Below are positions 3,641-61,275 of a DNA stretch of 64,000 nucleotides, piece by piece. The stretch lies in the sequence record PZ445439.1. One strand, given 5' to 3'. The position numbers and the translations under genes were made by a program. Each line of letters opens with the position of its first letter. The stretch's first letter is position 1. The notes beneath the pieces were generated by a model. It saw only the letters and a list, made by a program, of their open reading frames with translations. It made no database searches and was not told the DNA's origin. This stretch comes from a phage.

Positions 3641-3781
3641 TTACCATACTAGTGAATGTAGTGCCATAATAACATCAGAAATGAAAAGCACGACTTGAAT
3701 TAATCCGAACATTACTCCATAATATAGTGCTACCAATAAAGCAGCAAGGGCTAATGAATAGCCCAAGATTTTCTTAATCAT
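3641..3781 (-). CDS. small membrane peptide (about 46 aa)
   Basis: ATG embedded in the stop region of ac (AATGATTAA), ends 4 nt before gene 52; strongly hydrophobic. Confidence 0.3.
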   Translation of the reverse strand: MIKKILGYSLALAALLVALYYGVMFGLIQVVLFISDVIMALHSLVW

Positions 3782-3932
3782 TAGTAGATAACAACACAAA
3801 TGTTAAATATGCACACATACCCTGAGCTAAAGCTTGCGAAAACACACTGCTGGCATCAATACAGATAGTTAAAACACATGCTACTATCCAACAAATAAAT
3901 GAAATAACTCCTAATAATTTTGCGATATTCAT
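3774..3932 (-). CDS. ac: Ac-like small membrane protein (acridine sensitivity)
   Basis: about 52-aa hydrophobic ORF (MNIAKLLGVISFICWIVACVL...) between stp and 52, as in T4; GAGGAAAAT-ATG SD. Confidence 0.45.
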   Translation of the reverse strand: MNIAKLLGVISFICWIVACVLTICIDASSVFSQALAQGMCAYLTFVLLSTND

Positions 3933-3939
3933 ATTTTCC

Positions 3940-4020
3940 TCACTGGCGTCCGAAGACGCCTTTAGTTTTAAGATTATTACGATAGAACTGCATCACGTGT
4001 TCGTTGTGGAAATTACTCAT
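3940..4020 (-). CDS. stp: Stp peptide (26 aa), activator of the host PrrC anticodon nuclease pathway
   Basis: translation [26 protein letters not shown] equals recalled T4 Stp; start overlaps ndd stop (TAATG); missed by ORF track (too short). Confidence 0.8.
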
Positions 4021-4478
4021 TAATATGCCTGCAAAACAAATTTAAAGTTATCAGCCAACATACGGTTAATTTCTTCAAGTGTTTGATACTCAGAATGATG
4101 ATTACGAGTAAACGCTAAAGCTAACTGTCCTTTTCCAAATCCCGTCGTCAGAGGTTTCATCTTAGAAGCAGGCAGATAAAATACTGTGTATGGAACATTG
4201 TTATTTGCAATAGTACGTGCAAGCTGAGACCGACGTTGACGAATATGACTTAGAACTGCGCTGAATCCTTGCTTAGAACGTTGATTACCTACATAAAATC
4301 GTGCAGACACACATGGATTACTAAATGGACGACCATCTAATTTACTTACTAAAAAGTAAAATCCAGGTTTAGATAAAATATCTTTATGTGGAACTCCCAA
4401 AAACCATTCACCACCCTTGATTGTACCAATAACAGTTGCGCCTGCATTGTTCAGATCAGTAACAGTCATATATTTCAT
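4020..4478 (-). CDS. ndd: Ndd, nucleoid disruption protein
   Basis: ORF track 168 aa; internal start [18 protein letters not shown]... gives about 152 aa matching recalled T4 Ndd; GAGGAAAT SD before that ATG. Confidence 0.8.
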
Positions 4479-5987
4479 ATTAATTTCCTCTAAATTATTT
4501 TCTACTCCAAGGCCGCATGAATACACACGGCCATTAAATTAATCGTCGCAGTCGACGCTCAATTCCCAAAACTCTTCTACGGTATAAGTTTCAGTATCAT
4601 TTTCAATACAGAAACGTTCATTACTGTTATTTGCTAAAGTAGCGTTAACTGTCATTTTTTCGATAGTGCTCTTAAGAGGTGAAATACGAATTAACTGATC
4701 ACCGTTATCTAAACAAAAAATTTCACCAACTTTTACATCTTTAAAACTTTTCATAATTCACCTCAAGGAGTATAAAATCCGAATGCAGTTGTTGACCATC
4801 CCATCCAATGCGGAAAATTTGCGCCAATGTAAAACATAAGAATATAAAACCAACCGCTCAGCAAATTCATTATTTTACACCATTCCAAATTGTTTCAACC
4901 ACGGATTTTAAACCATTCTGGTGAATATCAATTCCGACTACTGTCATCAAATAGATTCCAACTACAACTGAACCTAATGCAAAAATCAGCATGAAAATGA
5001 ATAAAGCCGGAAAAATATTATCGAAAAACCATTCAATAAATGTAAAAGCACTGCGTTTACGCTTCATATTTTCCTCACATAAATCCAAAGTAAGCGTTTA
5101 ATACATCAATCATTAAAACGATTGGGAATATACTCAAAACTACTAGTATTATAACTACATTCCATATAGCTTTAACAATCTTTTTCATTTTCTGTTCCTC
5201 CGTAGTTGATAGGGTAATAGTACCACAGAGGAACAGTCTTGTAAACAACTTTTTTAAAAATATTCGTAATAAATGTGAATACCAATCACTACTGCCGAAA
5301 CTTGCGCAACCCACCATGCACAAGCAATAAGTACAGAATTCAAAATTTTCATAATAACCTCATCACAAAAGTAAATGTTAAACAAATTAATGGAATACTA
5401 ATTAACCAAACAAAACACCACCATAATGAACTCATAATTCAATCTCAGCGATTTTCATTTCATTACTATTAATAGCCTCTTTAAGACTATCTAAAAGAAT
5501 TACATTCCAGTGGTCATTCATATGACCATTAACTAAGCGTGTAATTTCTTCAGGAGTTGAAAAATAAGGCTGATCAGACTCCCAGTGCGATAATCCTAAG
5601 CGGGTATAAATCATACCTTCATCATCACTAGAATATTCAACTGACACAAACTCATCAGTTGTTTTATGTTTAGCGTAATAAAATTTAAATTTCATTTTAT
5701 TCAATAATCCGCTAAAAGATCGACGATTGCATCACGAAGACATTTATTCGCAATACGTTTAAGAGCAATTTCAGTTTCAGGCGCATTTCGAATAATCATT
5801 GAATTCAATTCAGCTTCGGCAAACTGAAGTTCTTTGACTAATTCAGCTTTATATTTTCCTTGACCTTTCTTAGCTTTTGCTCGTTTTAATTCAGCTGTAG
5901 TAAACATTTTGTTCTCCAAATCCGTATCAGTTGATAGGGTAATAGTACCACAGTCCTTGTGGTATGTAAACCATTTTGTGAAAATTT

Positions 5988-10462: not shown

Positions 10463-12282
10463 TACTGGCTCATCCATTCTTTGCGAAGGTCAGCATTATC
10501 TCCCATGAGCATTTCAAAAAGCTCTTTCCAATTCTCAGGAAGTTTAACAACATCATATACTGGATTTTGAATCATCTCACGATATTCAGATTTTTCCAAA
10601 GAGCCAAGTCCCTTAATATAACGGATGCTATGTTTAGGTAGAGCATCTTTGGCACTCTCATATTCAGCGACTGTATAAAACCATTCTTGTTTTTTACCGA
10701 CCTGAGCGATGATTACAGGAGTTTTGACAAAGCGAATTCGCCCCTGTTCAAACAGTTCTGGCCAATTACTAAAAAATCCGAGCAGAGAAGGATAAATGCT
10801 TCCTAGACCATCATGGTCAGCATCAGTCATAATAGCAATATTACGATAATTCAAGTTTTCAGCTTTTTCACCAAGAACTAGACCAGTGATTGCGCAAATA
10901 TCAAACAGTTCTTTGTTTTTAAGCATATCGGCATATGACATACCCCAGCTATTAAGAACTTTACCACGCAACGGATAACCACCATGAAGTTCTTTATCGC
11001 GAACATCAATAAGATATCCAATAGCTGAATCGCCTTCGGTTAAGAACAACGTAGTGTCAGCATCTTTACCACAAAGATTCGCTTTAATATGTTTATGAAC
11101 CTTAGCTTTAGAAGCCTTTTTAGCTGCTTTAGTTTCTGCTGCTTTTTCTGCCGCCAATTTACGAGCTAATGCTGCTTCAATAATTGGCATTAAAATTGCT
11201 TCATTATTTAGAATAGCGCGTGAAATCTTTTTAGCATCAAGTTGAATATGACTACGGATTTCACCAAATGGAGAAGTCAAACGCTCTTTAGTTTGAGAAT
11301 CAAATCGCATGTTTTTCATATCACGAACAAACATAACGATAGTCAAACATTCTTTAACACGTGCTTTAGTCACATCAATTTTGAACTTACGTTTGATTTG
11401 TGGAATAAGGTCTTCACAAATATCATCCATAACACAATCAATGTGATGGCCACCATTCTTAGTGTGAATGTTATTCACGTAAGTTAATTGACGAAAACCA
11501 TCCGGTGAACGACCAACCGCAATAGAACAATTTTCTTGCTCTTGAACAATAGCATGCTCATCATATTGGCGTGCATATTTCTTAAAATTACCCTGAACCT
11601 TTTTACCATTAAAGGTAAATTGAATATCAGGATAAACTACAGCAAGTGTCTGGAGACGATCTAGTGTAATGTCAAGATAAACTTGGGACAGCTCATTAGT
11701 TTCAAATGACATAAAATCAGGAATGAAAGTAACACGAGTTCCTTTCCATTTTCCAGGAATATCTTCCCATGATTTATTTTCCATGCCATTTGAACAACGA
11801 ACTACAATATTATTTTGACCATCACCAGTTTCACCGACAAACATCACAGAAAAAATGTTTGTCAAACTAGAACCAACACCGTTCATACCACCAGTGACGC
11901 GTTCTTTATCATCACCAAAGTTACCGCCTGCTTTTGGAATAGTCCATGCAGCAACAGGACCAGGAATTTCTTCACCGGTAGGTGTTTTAACCATCGCTTG
12001 TGGAATACCACGACCATTATCTTCAACTGTTACTTGATTGTTTTTAATAGTAACATTAATTTTATTCGCGAATTTAAACTTAGTACGAATACCTTCATCG
12101 ACTGAGTTATCAATAATTTCATCAATAAGCTTAACAAGACCAGGTACATACTGAACACTTTCCCATTTACCAAACAGAAAGCGCTCATGCATTTCATTAG
12201 CTGAAGAGCCAATGTACATGCCACTACGCTTTTTGATATGTTCAATATCACTCAGAATTTTAATTTCATTCTTAATCATCAC
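10462..12282 (-). CDS. 39: DNA topoisomerase II large subunit, contiguous gene 39 (GyrB-like ATPase + Toprim; includes the part T4 encodes as gene 60)
   Basis: 606 aa; GHKL ATPase motifs (IDNSVDEG, VEDNGRGIP), Toprim and C-terminal region in one frame, no gap or split. Confidence 0.9.
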   Translation of the reverse strand: MMIKNEIKILSDIEHIKKRSGMYIGSSANEMHERFLFGKWESVQYVPGLVKLIDEIIDNSVDEGIRTKFKFANKINVTIKNNQVTVEDNGRGIPQAMVKTPTGEEIPGPVAAWTIPKAGGNFGDDKERVTGGMNGVGSSLTNIFSVMFVGETGDGQNNIVVRCSNGMENKSWEDIPGKWKGTRVTFIPDFMSFETNELSQVYLDITLDRLQTLAVVYPDIQFTFNGKKVQGNFKKYARQYDEHAIVQEQENCSIAVGRSPDGFRQLTYVNNIHTKNGGHHIDCVMDDICEDLIPQIKRKFKIDVTKARVKECLTIVMFVRDMKNMRFDSQTKERLTSPFGEIRSHIQLDAKKISRAILNNEAILMPIIEAALARKLAAEKAAETKAAKKASKAKVHKHIKANLCGKDADTTLFLTEGDSAIGYLIDVRDKELHGGYPLRGKVLNSWGMSYADMLKNKELFDICAITGLVLGEKAENLNYRNIAIMTDADHDGLGSIYPSLLGFFSNWPELFEQGRIRFVKTPVIIAQVGKKQEWFYTVAEYESAKDALPKHSIRYIKGLGSLEKSEYREMIQNPVYDVVKLPENWKELFEMLMGDNADLRKEWMSQ

Positions 12283-12304
12283 TTATCCTCGTTTGGTTTC
12301 GGGA

Positions 12305-12333
12305 ATATTATACTCCGGTAATCATAAAGCTAA
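12305..12333 (-). promoter_or_regulatory. MotA-dependent middle promoter candidate for gene 39
   Basis: minus strand AGCTTTA (MotA-box-like) 12 nt upstream of TATAAT. Confidence 0.4.
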
Positions 12334-12334
12334 A

Positions 12335-12346
12335 GGCCCGAAGGCC
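12335..12346 (-). terminator. UUCG-tetraloop hairpin after lipoprotein ORF
   Basis: minus-strand GGCC-UUCG-GGCC flanked by A/U runs. Confidence 0.45.
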
Positions 12347-12348
12347 TT

Positions 12349-12621
12349 TTATTTAAAACGGATAGTCGAATCCTTGAAGAATAGACCAGAACACACAGTT
12401 CCTTCTACTTTCTGCCCGGTAGGTCCAATAGCACGAAATCCAGTATGTTGGAAATCATTTTCAGAGCAACCGAACCAGTTATATCCAGTGATTTCAATAT
12501 TAGTAAAACCGCTTGAAGACAAAACTTTAGTTGCATTATCAGCATCAGTACATCCTACTAAAGATACTGCTAATACTAATGCTGCGATAGAACGATTAAT
12601 ATATTTCATAATTTCACTCAA
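12349..12621 (-). CDS. putative lipoprotein
   Basis: 90 aa, signal peptide with lipobox-like LVGC. Confidence 0.4.
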   Translation of the reverse strand: MSEIMKYINRSIAALVLAVSLVGCTDADNATKVLSSSGFTNIEITGYNWFGCSENDFQHTGFRAIGPTGQKVEGTVCSGLFFKDSTIRFK

Positions 12622-12991
12622 ATTTAATGGCTTGAAGAAGACTAATAATTCTTAAACGGCTTCTTTCATCTTTAACTGTAAAAGAAAGAGGGTCGCCAGA
12701 TTTCATAGTAATAGTGCATTCAAAATCAAAATCTTCAGGAACTTCTTCGAAGAAGTCAAATTCTTCATCATAAATTAGAACATTACTCTGAAAACTGTGA
12801 AGAATTTTTCCATCATTTCCAGATGCTGTACTAATCATTGTAACATTATTACCTTTCATATCTTCAACGATAAATTCGCTTGTAGATATTACATTACTAA
12901 TAGAACCATTCCTATAAATAGCAGAAAATAGATATTTCTTTTCTTCGCCTTCGCGAATACGATACTTCTTACCGATTTTAAACATAATTAC

Positions 12992-53132: not shown

Positions 53133-53953
53133 TTAAGTCATTTATCGTTGGTTCATTATATACTGTTTCTTCATCAGTGTAAACCGGTTCTTCCGGCTCT
53201 GGCTCTACAGTTTCCCATCTAGCCGCCCACCAAGGTTTTATAGCGTAATCCATTCTCGTACTGTCTGAGTTACTACACGTTCACGGGGCTCGACTAGTTC
53301 AACAGTCGGAACTGCATAATACCAGTCAGAATGATAAGAACCTGATCGAGATTCATTTACCGCTACATGTACATTATGTTTTGGACTAAAGTAAACGCAC
53401 TGACGATATTGGCATTTACCATCTTGCACCCAATCTTCTATTTCGACAGGTTTAAGATAATCCGAAAAATCGAAATCATAATTTTCTGAAAATGCATCGT
53501 GGTCTTCAATAATTTCACTCAGAACTGCATCAACATCTAATTTATTTTCAATAGTCATTTGTCACCACTTAATTTCGCAATTTATTAAGTTCTTCATAAT
53601 CAATCCAGGATTCTAATCCTGATGGCAAATCAGATTCAATTTCCCAAAGAAGTTCTTCAATTTTCTGAAGACGATCCAATTCTTCAGCTGGAATAGTAAC
53701 CATTGCCGGAGCTCTTGCTGCACTAATATCGTAAATCATATTTACCCCAGTTTGACCATGCAATCGCCATATTTCCACTTAGAAATAGACTTTTCGCCAT
53801 TAGAATAATAAACTTCGAGTTTAGCACGGTTATTTTTAATTTGAATAACCTTAGCTGTCATCAAAGTTCCATACCCATAGTAAACTGCAACTTCATCACC
53901 TACATATACCGCGCTTCCGCGGTAGTCATGGATATAATCAGTTCCTTCGAGCA

Positions 53954-54217
53954 TCATTTAAAGTATTCCCGCAATTGGTCAAATCCACCAATATGACTTC
54001 CATCAGGAGCAAATACCTGAGGCATCGTCAAGCCGATTTGAGTATCACGACCTAGTTTCGTCAGAAGCTCAGCAATTTTCTCATCATCAAAAACACCTTT
54101 TTCCGGCATAATGTTGATAAATTCAAACGGCTGCTTCTTCACGGTCAAAAGACGTTTTGCATTATCGCAATACACACATTTATGGATGTTGCTATCATAA
54201 CCATATACTTTAAACAT
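53954..54217 (-). CDS. nrdC: NrdC thioredoxin/glutaredoxin
   Basis: 87 aa as in T4; active site CVYC. Confidence 0.85.
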
Positions 54218-54447
54218 AATATTCCTTAATTCCTAGTACTTGTTTAAAAGTCTCGTCGTAATCAAGACTTTGGCCCGTTTGTTCTTTATGTTTGTATATA
54301 ATATCACTTACTTCTGATAGCATATTTTTATATGAACGAGTTAAAGCAGATTTAAGCACGCTGTATCTATCAGGAAATTTACCATGTTCATTATAATAAG
54401 CTATTGCTAATTCACGGACTGCCTTTTCAGCAGCCTCCATATATTCT

Positions 54448-54765
54448 TTACGCTTGGTCATTTTCTTCTCGGTCAAATCGGTGTTTACAATGGCGACATT
54501 TATAACGAAGATTACTATTCTGCCAATGAACTAATTGTACCTGTTCAGTGCCGCACTTTGGGCAATTAGGAATATTCTTAGAAGCTCTTTCACGTCGTTC
54601 AACCATGGCCATAATAGCATCCCATGCTGGAGGTTTAAAATCTAAATCGTCGCAACCATGAATCTTTCCACGCATTTCCATATCATCTTCCTCACCAGCC
54701 ATAATAATTTTAATTAAACTGGAATTACTTGAAGCTGCGATGTCTTCTAATAAACGCTTTTTCAT
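54448..54765 (-). CDS. small zinc-ribbon protein
   Basis: 105 aa with CPKCG...CRHCKH. Confidence 0.35.
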
Positions 54766-55691
54766 TTCAATACCTCGATGGCATTACGTAAACCATTTGC
54801 TTTGGCGGTTAAAGCCTTAAGAACTTTAGTATGCTCTTCAATTTGTTTTTCAACTTCAGCCAAACGTACATTGAGATATTCACGTTCTTCGCTCAGATTA
54901 TCAACCTTTTCTACTTTAGGTTCTTTTATAACTGACTTATATGTATTAGGGTTCTTCAGTTTAATTAGAATGCGTGAACTATATAACATTGAACCATTAT
55001 CTTCGGTTTCGTCATACATTTCTACTACGTCCATGATTTTTAACATCATGCGAAGTTTATAAGACAACGAACGAATAGTTTTGTTGTGCTTATTAATTTC
55101 TTTAGCTGTCATGATGCCGAGATTACGTGAGTAATAATAAGGAACCTGGATATTAATTAATACTGATGAACCACCTGGCTTGTGTGTTACTTCATCAGCA
55201 ATAACCCAGTCCTTAACATGAACTGTATTTGTACGATCATCGCCCGCGGTAAATAGTTTACGAGCATGCTTAAAAAGCATATTCACTTGGTCATTGAATT
55301 GACAAGCAAATTTATCAGCAAATTTAGTTTCAGGAATGGTAGATAACCAATCAGCCAAATGGGTCTTTTTAACATCATTAACAATAGTAAATTCAACCAA
55401 ATCGGTTATAGATGTCTCAGATTTAATGAAGCTCGGCTTCATAAAGTTTTTAATGTTCTCATGAGCTACAGTAGAAGATAACATACGAGAACGTTTAAAC
55501 CATTCAAGCAAATTTCCTAACGAATGAGAATAAGCATTCTGAGTATCTTTACAGATATGATTTTCCTGTCCAACATATTGAAGGAAATCACGAAGAATAT
55601 TATTAACTACTGCTCTGTGTCCTATCTGATAATTGCGATGTTTAGTAATAAGACTGTTAAAATAATCAATATAATGTTTACGAGTTTTCAT
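54762..55691 (-). CDS. hypothetical protein with C-terminal coiled coil (family member 1 of 4)
   Basis: 309 aa; heptad-like C-terminal about 40 aa ([33 protein letters not shown]). Confidence 0.45.
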   Translation of the reverse strand: MKTRKHYIDYFNSLITKHRNYQIGHRAVVNNILRDFLQYVGQENHICKDTQNAYSHSLGNLLEWFKRSRMLSSTVAHENIKNFMKPSFIKSETSITDLVEFTIVNDVKKTHLADWLSTIPETKFADKFACQFNDQVNMLFKHARKLFTAGDDRTNTVHVKDWVIADEVTHKPGGSSVLINIQVPYYYSRNLGIMTAKEINKHNKTIRSLSYKLRMMLKIMDVVEMYDETEDNGSMLYSSRILIKLKNPNTYKSVIKEPKVEKVDNLSEEREYLNVRLAEVEKQIEEHTKVLKALTAKANGLRNAIEVLK

Positions 55692-55745
55692 ATTCTTCTC
55701 ACTTAGTTAATGATTTATGCTCCAAGCCATCCTTGGCTTTAAATT

Positions 55746-56747
55746 TTACTTAATTAACTGTAAAGCTTGTTCAAGACGATCAAGACGATTAACAGATTCT
55801 TCCCAAATCCTTTTAGCCTGTTCATATTCTTTCTGCGCTTTATTAGAAATTTCTAGAACTTCTTTATAAGCTTTTTCTAGTGCAATAACTTCTGGACGAA
55901 TTTCTACCGGTTCGGGTGAATCATCAAGACATTCCATTAGTTCCTCAAGAGTAGTTTCTTCTTTAGGAGTATTCACAATTTCCTCGCATTTTTGTTGATA
56001 AATTTCTTTATCAGTCGGTGAGTACGCGCATTTCACTTCACGAAGGCTAATTATAATTTTATATCCTTCCCAACCACATATATTTTTGAAAGGATACGTA
56101 TGAATACTTTTTACAGTTTCCATACAGCCCAAAGCCGCCTCTAACTGATGGGTTATAGTACTAGCAATTGAGAAAAATTTATTAATATTCTTTTGGTTAA
56201 CTTCCGGTGTAAAAAATCCATAATTCACAAAAATAGCTACTTTATTTTTATCAAGCTCATATTCTTTTACGATAATCATATCAGAAGCTAAAGGATGAAT
56301 TTGACGATAATCACCATAACATAATTTAGAAGCTGATTTTAAAATTTGTCCTTTAAAAAGTCTGAAATTACTAATCCAACGACGAGTAAAAATATTCTCA
56401 GGGTCTTCTTTATTATTAAGATGATAAGAATTAACATCACCGAACCAATTATATCCTACTACATCTTTGGTTCGTTTAATTTCTTTCCCAAATTTACCAA
56501 AAATATCCCGATTAACCAAATATGAAAGAAGACGAGACCCTTTAAAGGTTTCCTTAATATCATCTTTATCTACACGGCTAGAAATTTTACAAACTTCATG
56601 AATAAATTTACTTGAAGAAACTATACTTGCATCAATACTATTGAGCCATTGATTGATAATAGAAAGAACACCGTGATGACTAGACATGGGTTTAACTTTA
56701 TCATCAATAACGCTATTGAATGATTTGATATATTCGTTACGAGTCAT
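55746..56747 (-). CDS. hypothetical protein with C-terminal coiled coil (family member 2 of 4)
   Basis: start at MTRNEYIKSF after early promoter; C-terminal coiled coil. Confidence 0.45.
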   Translation of the reverse strand: MTRNEYIKSFNSVIDDKVKPMSSHHGVLSIINQWLNSIDASIVSSSKFIHEVCKISSRVDKDDIKETFKGSRLLSYLVNRDIFGKFGKEIKRTKDVVGYNWFGDVNSYHLNNKEDPENIFTRRWISNFRLFKGQILKSASKLCYGDYRQIHPLASDMIIVKEYELDKNKVAIFVNYGFFTPEVNQKNINKFFSIASTITHQLEAALGCMETVKSIHTYPFKNICGWEGYKIIISLREVKCAYSPTDKEIYQQKCEEIVNTPKEETTLEELMECLDDSPEPVEIRPEVIALEKAYKEVLEISNKAQKEYEQAKRIWEESVNRLDRLEQALQLIK

Positions 56748-56804
56748 AATAATCTCCTCAGTAGAAAGTAAGAACATTATACCACATCCTTGTGGCAAAG
56801 TAAA

Positions 56805-57833
56805 CTAGTTCAGTGCATTTAGTGCATTGTTCAGTTTAGAACGTTGTTTTGTCAGATTTTGAACCCTTGACTGTGCTTGTTCTAACACCTTTTCAGCTTC
56901 TAGCATTTCATTAGTTGCTTTAACAAGTTCATCATCTACTGCTTTAAGAGACTTCTCAATCGCATCGGCGTGCCATTTTTCAACAGGTTTAAGACTCGGA
57001 TTTTCAACAGGAAGAAAATTCACTTTATTGAATTTCCATGCATCATTATTACCTGAACTATACATCCAAAATTTAGGATCGTTTGATAAGTAATTAGATA
57101 AATTTAAGTTATAGTTATCTTGCACTTCCTGTTTTTTCTCTTGCGGGACTTCGTCCTTTCTCAAATAATCATATTTAAATGAAACGACCATATCAAGTTC
57201 ATATGTTGTCGTATCTAATTTAAATCGTTCGAAATGCTGCGAAATCTTAGACTGAACAGCGGAAACAACATCCATATACTTAAATGCTTCTGTCAATTGT
57301 GATTTAAGGCATTCGCAAATTGAAAGAGAATTTTTTGTATTAGGTTTAAAGCTAATTCGTGCAGTTCTGTTATTTTCTTTTAATGGTCTTACTTCCATCT
57401 GAAGAGTATAACCATCAAATTTCAGATTCTTTAAGTTAATGTCAGAGCCTTTTAATCGACTAGCAGTAGACAAAATTTGCTTTAATTGTCTACGGAACAG
57501 AGCAATAAATCTCCATTCAATACGATAATGATTTGGATTGAAAAATCCAGATGATAAATCGACCTTACTTTGACCAACGCCTTGAACAAATAGAGGATTT
57601 TTATAATCAATAGTTTTACAGAAATCAACGAGTTGCTCGCGAGCAGTCATTTGTGTAATATACCCTGCTTTACTAAAATGACGTAACCATTCACTGCTAT
57701 TCAAATGTTTAAAGGCATGAATGGAACAATTAACTTTACCAAGGTCTAAATTATTTTCGCACAAAAATGTCATAGCATCACGAGTATAACTGGCATTACG
57801 AACAATATCTTCAATTTGAGAACGAGTTTTCAT
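56805..57833 (-). CDS. hypothetical protein with C-terminal coiled coil (family member 3 of 4)
   Basis: 342 aa; C-terminal coiled coil. Confidence 0.45.
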   Translation of the reverse strand: MKTRSQIEDIVRNASYTRDAMTFLCENNLDLGKVNCSIHAFKHLNSSEWLRHFSKAGYITQMTAREQLVDFCKTIDYKNPLFVQGVGQSKVDLSSGFFNPNHYRIEWRFIALFRRQLKQILSTASRLKGSDINLKNLKFDGYTLQMEVRPLKENNRTARISFKPNTKNSLSICECLKSQLTEAFKYMDVVSAVQSKISQHFERFKLDTTTYELDMVVSFKYDYLRKDEVPQEKKQEVQDNYNLNLSNYLSNDPKFWMYSSGNNDAWKFNKVNFLPVENPSLKPVEKWHADAIEKSLKAVDDELVKATNEMLEAEKVLEQAQSRVQNLTKQRSKLNNALNALN

Positions 57834-57841
57834 AGTATTCC

Positions 57842-58753
57842 TTAAGATTTAAGTAAATCAACAATTTTAATTAACTTTTCACGCTCAGATTTAGCTTTAC
57901 TACTCAGTCCAGATAGTCTAAAAATTTCATCATCATATTGTTGAATAGAAATATTCAGCTCTTCAATCTGCTTATTAAAATAATCAATTTGTTCAGAATG
58001 TTTTTCGTTACTACGAACTGGTACAGGTTTTGTAGGCAATTCAATTGAACTGGATTCATCCGGGCGATAAATTAAAATACAACTTGAACCAATTGGACAT
58101 TTTGCACCAGATGAATATTCTAATGTTCCAGATTCTTTTAAAACTTCAAAAGCTAAACAGAGATGATGGCCCATATTAACATAATCCGTAGAGCGAGCTC
58201 TGACGTAATAATCATCTCCACGAATACTAAATTTAAAACATTTAAGGTCTTCTGTATTATTAGTTTTAAAAATCATTTGTTTATCTAGACCTTTAGCCAA
58301 TCGAGCGCCTAACGCTAATAATCGTCGTTGATTTTCCCATAAATCCGCAATCATTTGGTCGAATGATAATTTCGGCATTAGTCGGCCATAAAGGTCGTAT
58401 CCTTTATTATAATTGCGAAGGATTTCACTCGCGTTAATACGAGACAATGCTCCAATTTTATTAAGGGCTTTCATAATGCGATTAGATAAACTCATTCCAG
58501 ATCCGTTTGTTCGCTGTAAATGTTTTTCTAATCCAAACCCAATATCAACTTTAAACTTATCTAAAATTTCAGCATGAACATCTCTGTCAATAACATTCAA
58601 ATCCAAAGTTGAGTTAAATCTATGAAAAAATTTATCTGGCTCTCCACGACGAAATACAGTCCATTCATTCATCATTTTTTTATTAACTAAAGATTTAATT
58701 ACTGCATTGACATTATTAATTACTACTGACATATTTTCCTCACTCAATTTCAA
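57842..58753 (-). CDS. hypothetical protein with C-terminal coiled coil (family member 4 of 4)
   Basis: 303 aa; C-terminal coiled coil. Confidence 0.45.
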   Translation of the reverse strand: MKLSEENMSVVINNVNAVIKSLVNKKMMNEWTVFRRGEPDKFFHRFNSTLDLNVIDRDVHAEILDKFKVDIGFGLEKHLQRTNGSGMSLSNRIMKALNKIGALSRINASEILRNYNKGYDLYGRLMPKLSFDQMIADLWENQRRLLALGARLAKGLDKQMIFKTNNTEDLKCFKFSIRGDDYYVRARSTDYVNMGHHLCLAFEVLKESGTLEYSSGAKCPIGSSCILIYRPDESSSIELPTKPVPVRSNEKHSEQIDYFNKQIEELNISIQQYDDEIFRLSGLSSKAKSEREKLIKIVDLLKS

Positions 58754-59147
58754 TTTTACTAAATATACAGAATAAGATGGAACAGACTATATAAGCACCA
58801 CACACAGATTGAACTAATACCATTCCAAAGAACCAAACAATATTATCAAACAATGTCTGTTTTACGTCGAAAGGACGTAAACTTACAGTAATATTATCAC
58901 CTTTTTCTATTGAAGAATACATCTCTGGGGAAATATATTCACTAAATCTATAACCGTCTTTTAGTTCATATACGGCAATAAACGATAAACTAGACCCTTT
59001 TCCTTGTGTTCCTGTAATGGTATTAACTATAGTAACATCATAATCTTTATAATGCATATAATCATTAATAGCATAATAACCGTATGCAACTACTACACAT
59101 AAACAACATATCAATAAATTCAATCTTTTAATTATCAACTGTTTCAT
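58740..59147 (-). CDS. membrane protein
   Basis: 135 aa, N- and C-terminal hydrophobic helices. Confidence 0.4.
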   Translation of the reverse strand: MKQLIIKRLNLLICCLCVVVAYGYYAINDYMHYKDYDVTIVNTITGTQGKGSSLSFIAVYELKDGYRFSEYISPEMYSSIEKGDNITVSLRPFDVKQTLFDNIVWFFGMVLVQSVCGAYIVCSILFCIFSKIEIE

Positions 59148-59202
59148 AATAATCTCAATTAAAAGGGCTTAGAACCATTATACCATCCTTGGTATAAAGC
59201 GG

Positions 59203-59730
59203 TTATGCGAGTACCGTCTTTAACCGTTCTTCAAACTTCCGAAGAGTATTTTGGCGTTCAGCTCTTTGCTTTTTGTAAGTTTCAATACGCTCTGAAATGA
59301 GAGTGTATCGTTCATTCACTGATTCTTTCATAAAATCAGGAATTTCACGAGAAGCTTTAATCTCGTCAAATTTATCAATAACAGCTTGCTCTTCAGCAAT
59401 TAAGTTATCATACATTAAAATATCTTTCTTGATGAACTCAATATCTTCTTGAGTTACACGAGATAATTTAGATGCTTTATCCTTTTTGTACTGTTCGTTA
59501 GTATCACGAGACCAATGTAATATACGATTTTTATTCGTATTCTTGTAAATTTCTACAATACCAATCTCATCAATAATAACGATCCAATTCCAACGGGATT
59601 TGTAAATTTGTCCTCCATCAACAGTGATTTCACCTCCGATTGAGATGTCATTAAAGAACTTGCTTTGTGCTTCAGATTTAAATTTACCATCGTTGTAATT
59701 TACCAAGTTGAAAATATCTTTAGCATTCAT
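59203..59730 (-). CDS. hypothetical protein
   Basis: start at MNAKDIF (GGAGGAACAGAAA-ATG SD); the upstream part of the ORF-track call is read-through of the early promoter. Confidence 0.4.
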   Translation of the reverse strand: MNAKDIFNLVNYNDGKFKSEAQSKFFNDISIGGEITVDGGQIYKSRWNWIVIIDEIGIVEIYKNTNKNRILHWSRDTNEQYKKDKASKLSRVTQEDIEFIKKDILMYDNLIAEEQAVIDKFDEIKASREIPDFMKESVNERYTLISERIETYKKQRAERQNTLRKFEERLKTVLA

Positions 59731-61240: not shown

Positions 61241-61257
61241 ATTTTTAAAATAAAAAG

Positions 61258-61275
61258 GGAGCCCGAAGGCTCCCT
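61258..61275 (-). terminator. hairpin downstream of the nucleotidyltransferase-fold gene
   Basis: GGGAGCC-UUCG-GGCUCCC then U tract. Confidence 0.5.

Follow-up and report, generated by a model that had tools for sequence, protein, structure and literature searches.

Four consecutive genes of a T4-like phage, nrdC.3, nrdC.4, nrdC.5, and nrdC.6, appear from profile comparisons and predicted models to encode whole-length paralogs of a single fold, each of which ends in a coiled-coil tail of its own. The genes lie in the 64,000-nucleotide stretch of phage DNA of sequence record PZ445439.1 (the whole stretch is called the window here), a Tequatrovirus (T4-like) segment whose nearest record is that of Escherichia phage JoYop (97.5% over positions 54400-59200). 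They are arranged head-to-tail on the minus strand, like every gene of this region, with intergenic gaps of 54, 57, and 8 nucleotides along the array, and the T4 gene names were assigned via synteny and identity with the Shfl2 and T4 annotations. The products NrdC.3 to NrdC.6 share one architecture, in which a helical domain at the N-terminus is followed by an α/β core, then a variable linker, and lastly a coiled coil at the C-terminus. We consider it probable, although some way from certain, that the array encodes tandemly duplicated early, non-essential, soluble cytoplasmic anti-defense proteins that are oligomerized through their coiled coils and directed at different targets. A preliminary description of the same region had listed four tandem open reading frames (ORFs); all of them are present on the minus strand, and only the start of nrdC.6 had to be revised (from 58753 to 58732).

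Homology of the four protein bodies

The preliminary description saw no mutual similarity among the bodies of the four proteins, which is fair as a judgment by eye; however, BLASTP aligns the bodies of NrdC.3 and NrdC.4 over 230 amino acids with 24% identity (E = 8.5e-7). In hhalign comparisons, for which the family alignments were built from database homologues and fetched loci, the E-values between array neighbors were 3.2e-15 for NrdC.3 and NrdC.4 (probability 98.5%), 1.8e-5 for NrdC.4 and NrdC.5, and 2.6e-3 for NrdC.5 and NrdC.6, and those between non-neighbors, which are individually weak, were 0.014 for NrdC.3 and NrdC.5, 0.013 for NrdC.3 and NrdC.6, and 0.049 for NrdC.4 and NrdC.6. All six pairs are collinear, and each scored better than its own reversed-profile control (controls 0.079-0.78); a merged profile of NrdC.3, NrdC.4, and NrdC.5 matched NrdC.6 at 1.4e-3, versus 0.19 for the reversed control. 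Two motifs are aligned in every pair, i.e., F-K-x-S-R-L-L-S followed by a helix, and A-[SR]-[KR]-L-x2-3-G-D. Since the similarity peaks between neighbors in the array and falls with distance, the pattern is that which serial tandem duplication would leave.

The AlphaFold models of NrdC.4 and NrdC.6 present an identical order of secondary-structure elements, in which a helical N-domain is followed by a small β unit, three helices, a hairpin, a long helix, a further hairpin, the linker, and the tail helix. In Foldseek searches against BFVD, the two models share at least eight neighbors with E-values of 1e-2 to 1e-8, which are uncharacterized proteins from other genera of the Straboviridae; the shared matches include those of PM2 (6.9e-8 and 1.5e-7 for the two models), IME523 (1.5e-7 and 1.2e-6), and fHyAci03 (6e-7 and 2.7e-6), and further ones are found in Acj9, Cronus, and Mineola. 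Straboviridae proteins of 300-370 amino acids, such as Acj61p120 and Acj61p121, A0A0A0PZG4 of Pectobacterium phage PM2, and A0A2Z4QAR2 of Klebsiella phage Mineola, have the same predicted fold (Foldseek E-values of 1e-4 to 1e-8 with both models) but differ from NrdC.3-6 in having only 10-16% sequence identity to them. The profile alignments and the predicted models together indicate that NrdC.3-6 are whole-length paralogs that belong to one superfamily and were duplicated in tandem. The earlier suggestion of unrelated variable effector bodies on a common tail must be given up, since the bodies are homologous along their whole length according to hhalign and Foldseek; in its place stand four whole-length paralogs that have diverged everywhere, each with its own coiled-coil tail.

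Public databases file these paralogs apart. NrdC.5 matches DUF7235 (PF23882) with 395 bits against a cutoff of 30, covering residues 1-342, and no match of NrdC.3, NrdC.4, or NrdC.6 to this model was found in the Pfam scan. NrdC.3 and NrdC.4 match phrog_1435 over their full length, whereas NrdC.5 and NrdC.6 do not; the counterpart of this PHROG in the newer Pfam is PF26897, which is found on all NrdC.4 homologues, and NrdC.3, NrdC.4, and NrdC.6 are placed in PF26897, PF26899, and PHROGs that are separate from those of NrdC.5. The preliminary description had named ordinary paralogs of a known enzyme as a possible identity of the bodies. Paralogs they are, but when the four proteins, as well as sets of 32 and 41 family members, were scanned with Pfam, NCBIfam, and PADLOC, no consistent match, to an enzyme or otherwise, emerged beyond DUF7235 for NrdC.5, and the only PADLOC match was one of the coiled-coil type to BrxC (E = 0.008). 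Sequence searches of the PDB with NrdC.5 and with profiles of the NrdC.4 and NrdC.6 families returned designed helical repeats and noise, and no solved relative. A profile of NrdC.3 and NrdC.4 run against 1.84 billion representative proteins collected nine clusters and did not reach the NrdC.5 and NrdC.6 families. By these sequence searches, the family is confined to T4-like phages.

Coiled-coil tails

The C-terminal heptad-like helices of the preliminary description are borne out, and the peptides that it quoted are present. All four proteins end in a heptad helix of about 45-55 amino acids. According to a heptad score of our own, which was computed in 28-residue windows with shuffled sequences as controls, each protein has its best window at the C-terminal end (z = 2.7-3.9), and helices are predicted there in the AlphaFold models of NrdC.4 and NrdC.6. 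The tail of the NrdC.6 model consists of helices 250-279 and 285-302 (in the numbering of a 303-residue form) with a short break between them, and because the tail helix is broken, the best window of NrdC.6 in a scan of the ORFs (residues 246-273 of 296) is short of the end. The terminal pattern common to the tails is L-x-x-[AI]-[ILV]-x-[VLA]-[LI]-[KN].

Helices rich in E, K, Q, and L are frequent in AT-rich phage genomes, and the four tails could on that account be taken for a product of chance or convergence in unrelated genes. We find this scarcely credible. Among the 57 ORFs of the window that encode at least 120 amino acids, a C-terminal coiled-coil signal was found in nrdC.3, nrdC.4, nrdC.5, nrdC.6, and nrdC.8 and in none of the other 52, and the clustering of the tails is therefore not due to chance. 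The whole-length homology of NrdC.3-6 argues in the same direction, as do the distant structural relatives in Acj61, which bear such tails too. The tails also align best when they are anchored at the C-terminus: in all six pairs, only 0-2 of 70 other offsets, which include those that keep the heptad phase, score better. Since hardly any offset outperforms the anchored alignment in any pair, the tails share an ancestor, along with the bodies. A chance origin is thus refuted by the profile homology, the C-terminus-anchored tail alignment, and the ORF-wide tail scan.

On the other hand, the notion of a constant tail module does not hold. In the last 25 residues, the tails of NrdC.3 and NrdC.4 are approximately 16% identical (one pair, compared by eye), a value that does not exceed that of the body, and every paralog has a conserved tail of its own. 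Within the orthologous groups, column identity is 0.64-0.77 in the tails versus 0.52-0.72 in the bodies; i.e., each tail is strongly conserved inside its own group, at least as much as the body. Since the tails have diverged between paralogs yet are conserved within groups, paralog-specific interactions are suggested, the simplest of which is self-association. We infer that each tail forms a paralog-specific homo-oligomer, probably a dimer.

Coordinates, alleles, and copy number of the array

Table 1. Positions of the array genes, their parts, and related neighboring genes in the window (aa, amino acids; pLDDT, predicted local distance difference test; dN/dS, ratio of nonsynonymous to synonymous substitution rates).
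Feature	Position	Strand	Description
gp49.2	53238-53558		97% to T4; ortholog of OLD inhibitor
nrdC.1	54210-54452		98.7% to T4; ortholog of Septu inhibitor
nrdC.3	54762-55691	-	309 aa; 61% identity to T4 NrdC.3; phrog_1435 at 1.8e-113
NrdC.3 tail	54765-54905	-	aa 263-309; heptad z = 3.9; a/d positions V,R,L,I,L,A,I / L,L,V,H,L,L,L
nrdC.4	55746-56747	-	333 aa; 91% identity to T4 NrdC.4; phrog_1435 at 2e-166; AlphaFold mean pLDDT 84
NrdC.4 tail	55749-55895	-	aa 285-333; AlphaFold helix 285-332 (48 residues); heptad z = 2.7; dN/dS 0.06
NrdC.4 α/β core	56028-56495	-	aa 85-240; holds shared motif ...ILKSASKLCYGD at aa 134-146
Early-promoter-like site (GTTTACTTT...N17...TGGTATAAT)	56776-56804	-	Upstream of nrdC.4; consensus match only
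nrdC.5	56805-57833	-	342 aa; 92% full-length identity to T4 NrdC.5; Pfam DUF7235 at 3.4e-118
NrdC.5 tail	56808-56978	-	aa 286-342; heptad z = 3.8; above-threshold windows span 286-342
nrdC.6	57842-58732	-	296 aa from ATG (most likely start); phrog_2257 at 2.3e-150; AlphaFold mean pLDDT 76
NrdC.6 tail	57845-58006	-	aa 243-296 of 296-aa form; break at LSGLSS; heptad z = 3.8
nrdC.8	59203-59730	-	175 aa; C-terminal coiled coil; Druantia III inhibitor ortholog in Bas37

The start of nrdC.6 is most likely the ATG at 58732 (296 amino acids) rather than the TTG at 58753 (303 amino acids), because a GAGG Shine-Dalgarno sequence is located 7 nucleotides upstream of the former, the homologues have 295-296 amino acids, and, in the TTG-started form, the PHROG match and the confident AlphaFold structure both start at residue 8. 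NrdC.6 is 96.5% identical to its T4 counterpart across 259 amino acids. The NrdC.6 of the T4 RefSeq record (NC_000866 locus, 12067-12894) has 275 amino acids, with a frameshift in place of the coiled-coil tail; the 296-amino-acid form is encoded by KJ477684, by T4D (for which the HIDEN-SEQ table gives 891 nucleotides), and by other Tequatroviruses, and the RefSeq form probably reflects either an error in the reference sequence or strain variation. The hexamers of the T4-early-type promoter-like site that precedes nrdC.4 match the consensus at 10 of 12 positions, and an extended -10 TG is present. The spacer between nrdC.4 and nrdC.3 contains a small GC hairpin at 55722-55739.

The dN/dS values of nrdC.3-6 are 0.15-0.28, versus 0.01-0.07 for nrdC, gp49, nrdC.8, and nrdC.10; the four genes are under purifying selection and evolve several-fold faster than those housekeeping neighbors, and gene-wide positive selection was not seen in any of them at these values. 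Deep alleles of nrdC.3 are only 30-65% identical in the α/β core, whereas both ends are 85-95% identical. The nrdC.3 allele of the window is about 78% identical to that of the Mosigvirus type, compared with 61% for the T4 type, and this closer match suggests exchange of nrdC.3 between genera. The allelic dS of the segment from nrdC.2 to nrdC.3 (54448-55691) is 0.56-0.72, compared with 0.07-0.2 in the neighbors.

Variation in copy number and cassette content across T4-like phages, which the preliminary description had proposed to look for, was found: the array holds one to four members, and deletions, frameshifts, and in-frame fusions are seen. Four members are found in most Tequatroviruses and three in Mosigvirus and Gaprivervirus, while Salmonella phage Manna has two. 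One of the Manna genes (3715-4752 of its locus) is an in-frame fusion, in which a DDEI/CEEI microhomology marks the junction between the NrdC.6 part, consisting of the body plus half of the tail (its first half), and the linker and tail of NrdC.4; nrdC.5 and most of nrdC.4 are deleted. ACG-C40 retains one member, along with a 71-amino-acid nrdC.5 fragment and a remnant of the nrdC.3 tail; in Pinarejo, nrdC.6 is lost and a tail remnant is left; one IMG/VR contig has a frameshifted nrdC.4, and the sequence P0056 has an ORF that fuses nrdC.5 and nrdC.3. Acinetobacter phage Acj61, which belongs to another subfamily, carries Acj61p120 and Acj61p121 in tandem, adjoining nrdC, with coiled-coil tails that have an L-x-K-A-L ending; the architecture and the locus are therefore old. 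Among the structural relatives named above, genomic position and tails were examined for this pair. Acj61p118 and three other Acj61 proteins that were considered as relatives proved to be unrelated.

Several observations concern the flanks of the array and the naming of its genes. The product of nrdC.2 (54448-54765, minus strand) has 105 amino acids and a C-terminal CxxC...CxxC zinc-ribbon signature, with many sub-threshold matches to zinc-ribbon Pfam families and a match to an 'NrdC-like thioredoxin' PHROG at 3e-10. Between nrdC.11 and nrdC.10 (61256-61275), a perfect 8-bp GC-rich hairpin is accompanied by T-runs on both strands and looks like a bidirectional terminator. In GenBank, the products of nrdC.1-nrdC.11 are often labeled 'thioredoxin' through propagation of the gene name, and one 2026 paper takes nrdC.8 for a nucleotide reductase on the same kind of propagated name.

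Probable anti-defense function and alternative explanations

The functional reading starts from NrdC.5. Expressed from a plasmid, T4 nrdC.5 restores the plating of a T4 deletion mutant on dsr1+ E. coli (ECOR17 dsr1) (Srikant et al., eLife 2022, PMC9391042); Dsr1 is a SIR2 NADase, and T4 NrdC.5 is sufficient to overcome it (PMC9391042). The NrdC.5 of the window would be expected to have the same anti-Dsr1 activity, by orthology to the 92%-identical T4 protein. According to a 2026 preprint (PMC12803255), a phage major capsid protein activates EcDsr1 by way of a tetratricopeptide-repeat (TPR) sensor that also occurs in Avs7. The surroundings of the array are rich in published anti-defense genes: Gp49.2 of T6 inhibits OLD (PMC13096335), NrdC.1 of T4 inhibits Septu, and bas37_0203 inhibits Druantia III (HIDEN-SEQ preprint, 10.1101/2025.11.20.689424). 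The last of these is the ortholog of NrdC.8, as it is the 528-nucleotide gene following nrdC.7 in the Bas37 annotation table. The window carries close orthologs of gp49.2, nrdC.1, and nrdC.8, and the stretch between 53.2 and 59.7 kb amounts in effect to an anti-defense island. The genes nrdC.3-6 are dispensable on K-12, in T4 and Bas37 alike (10.1101/2025.11.20.689424), and the accessible part of the HIDEN-SEQ knockout list contains no nrdC.3-6 knockouts.

The preliminary description had proposed a diversified phage family with a role in anti-defense or superinfection exclusion. The profile homology of all four proteins agrees with the former part, and the Dsr1 results and the composition of the locus agree with an anti-defense role. 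Superinfection exclusion at the membrane is unlikely, because a Kyte-Doolittle scan of NrdC.3-6 with a 19-residue window found no stretch of transmembrane or signal-peptide strength.

We infer that each paralog is an anti-defense protein with its own host target. In this model, the duplicated array would encode early soluble proteins of one architecture with diverged bodies; the coiled-coil tail would assemble a paralog-specific homo-oligomer, which would display the diverged body in at least two copies, and the body would bind a host immune protein and block it stoichiometrically. NrdC.5, expressed early, would already occupy the TPR sensor or SIR2 domain of Dsr1 by the time the late major capsid protein could act as the trigger, and with Dsr1 pre-occupied, NAD+ depletion would never be switched on.

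The closest known system is T4 NrdC.5 itself (DUF7235), of which the NrdC.5 of the window is the ortholog; NrdC.3, NrdC.4, and NrdC.6 share its architecture as distant paralogs but lie outside DUF7235, in other Pfam families and PHROGs. A functional analogue is DSAD1, the anti-DSR2 protein of SPbeta-like Bacillus phages, which is reported to neutralize a SIR2 NADase defense protein by binding; however, no sequence relationship to DSAD1 was found, and binding of Dsr1 by NrdC.5 is a proposal. The triggers differ as well: that of DSR2 is the tail tube, and that of Dsr1 is reported to be the major capsid protein, detected with an Avs7-type TPR sensor. NrdC.8 (Bas37_0203) resembles NrdC.3-6 in its location in the same cluster, its early and non-essential nature, and its C-terminal coiled coil, but it has 175 amino acids and another body; it was rejected as a fifth family member, since hhalign comparisons with the four families were no better than the reversed controls. 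The IP family of the T-even anti-defense set offers a parallel, in that differing bodies are combined with one short common module, i.e., an N-terminal capsid-targeting sequence; there, however, a targeting signal is attached to unrelated bodies, whereas NrdC.3-6 are homologous throughout and their C-terminal element is a diverged coiled coil.

The tails could instead be a common module for docking or hetero-oligomerization that brings the bodies to one partner or into a mixed complex, possibly with NrdC.8. The tails of NrdC.3-6 and NrdC.8 are all C-terminal coiled coils encoded by adjacent genes, the terminal pattern is shared and the best alignment is anchored at the C-terminus, and the Manna fusion pairs the NrdC.6 body with the linker and tail of NrdC.4. 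We nevertheless regard such a module as unlikely: the low identity between the NrdC.3 and NrdC.4 tails contrasts with the high column identity within groups and with the dN/dS of 0.06 in the NrdC.4 tail, viable phages exist that have one, two, or three members, NrdC.8 has no detectable homology to NrdC.3-6, and NrdC.5 supplied alone in trans works against Dsr1 in a phage from which a block of genes is missing (PMC9391042). Another possibility is that NrdC.3-6 are nucleic-acid-binding early proteins, i.e., modulators of the nucleoid, transcription, or recombination, the anti-Dsr1 effect of which is indirect. The bodies of NrdC.3, NrdC.5, and NrdC.6 are basic, with isoelectric points (pI) of 9.2-9.4. 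A dimeric coiled coil bearing two basic heads is a frequent layout of DNA binders. In the N-domain of NrdC.3, residues 30-86 also match the SAM-like (core-binding) domain at the N-terminus of tyrosine recombinases, though below threshold (NCBIfam E = 0.0019, Pfam E = 0.094). These matches are far under the curated cutoffs, however (13.4 bits against 22.3 in Pfam and 17.5 against 279 in NCBIfam, so that NrdC.3 is not assigned to the domain), and they were obtained for only one of the 32 family members scanned, NrdC.3 itself; the NrdC.4 body is neutral (pI 7.0), the genes are dispensable on K-12, and the variation in copy number and alleles suits a host-specific accessory role better than that of a general regulator. 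A nucleic-acid-binding role therefore seems improbable to us.

Two further explanations make the proteins decoys. In the first, the α/β core would mimic a neck or tail protein of the tail-terminator (gpU-like) fold and, as an early decoy, occupy the pattern-recognition sensors of the host without activating them. Bacteria do have sensors that recognize tail terminators and other structural proteins (PMC12803255), but the reported trigger of Dsr1 is the major capsid protein and not the terminator, proteins of the nitroreductase fold and other small α/β proteins score equally with the model (that of NrdC.4, not NrdC.5), and there is no sequence-level similarity to such families; we hold this form of the idea to be very unlikely. 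Compared with tail terminator or completion proteins of the lambda gpU-like fold, the NrdC proteins are early and cytoplasmic and carry extra N-terminal and coiled-coil parts, and membership in that family was not accepted on the weak scores and without sequence similarity, so that the resemblance serves as a lead only. In the second, broader form, which we consider a long shot, each paralog would be a coiled-coil dimer whose core imitates the surface of a conserved virion protein and pre-occupies a different clade of host pattern-recognition sensors (TPR sensors of the Dsr1/Avs7 type and their relatives) before the late structural proteins appear. If this were true, serial gene duplication in the phage would track the diversification of a host sensor family.

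Several points weigh against the anti-defense reading of the whole array. The literature on nrdC.3, nrdC.4, nrdC.6, DUF7235, and Dsr1 inhibitors gives a phenotype for NrdC.5 only (PMC9391042), and the effect of NrdC.5 on Dsr1 could be indirect, binding being a prediction. A weak negative point is that, in the accessible part of the HIDEN-SEQ work on uropathogenic isolates, NrdC.3, NrdC.4, and NrdC.6 are not among the strongly depleted genes that were followed up. Oligomerization through the tails is deduced from sequence alone, and the basic bodies of NrdC.3, NrdC.5, and NrdC.6 also fit nucleic-acid binding. NrdC.6 is tied to the other three proteins by weak profile scores and structural neighbors only, and the fold membership of NrdC.3 and NrdC.5 rests on profile alignments, as the predicted models are those of NrdC.4 and NrdC.6.

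The result is hypothesis-generating and lies within a well-studied phage; it does not introduce a new kind of system. Whole-length paralogy joins as one family three Pfam/PHROG families that are at present filed apart. Few inhibitors of a SIR2 NADase defense are known, and NrdC.5 is among them; paralogy to NrdC.5 makes nrdC.3, nrdC.4, and nrdC.6 specific candidates for new anti-defense proteins, the specificity of which is predicted to reside in the hypervariable α/β core. The natural alleles, the deletions, and the one fusion of a body to another tail are ready material for experiments on host range and on the pairing of these proteins with host defenses.

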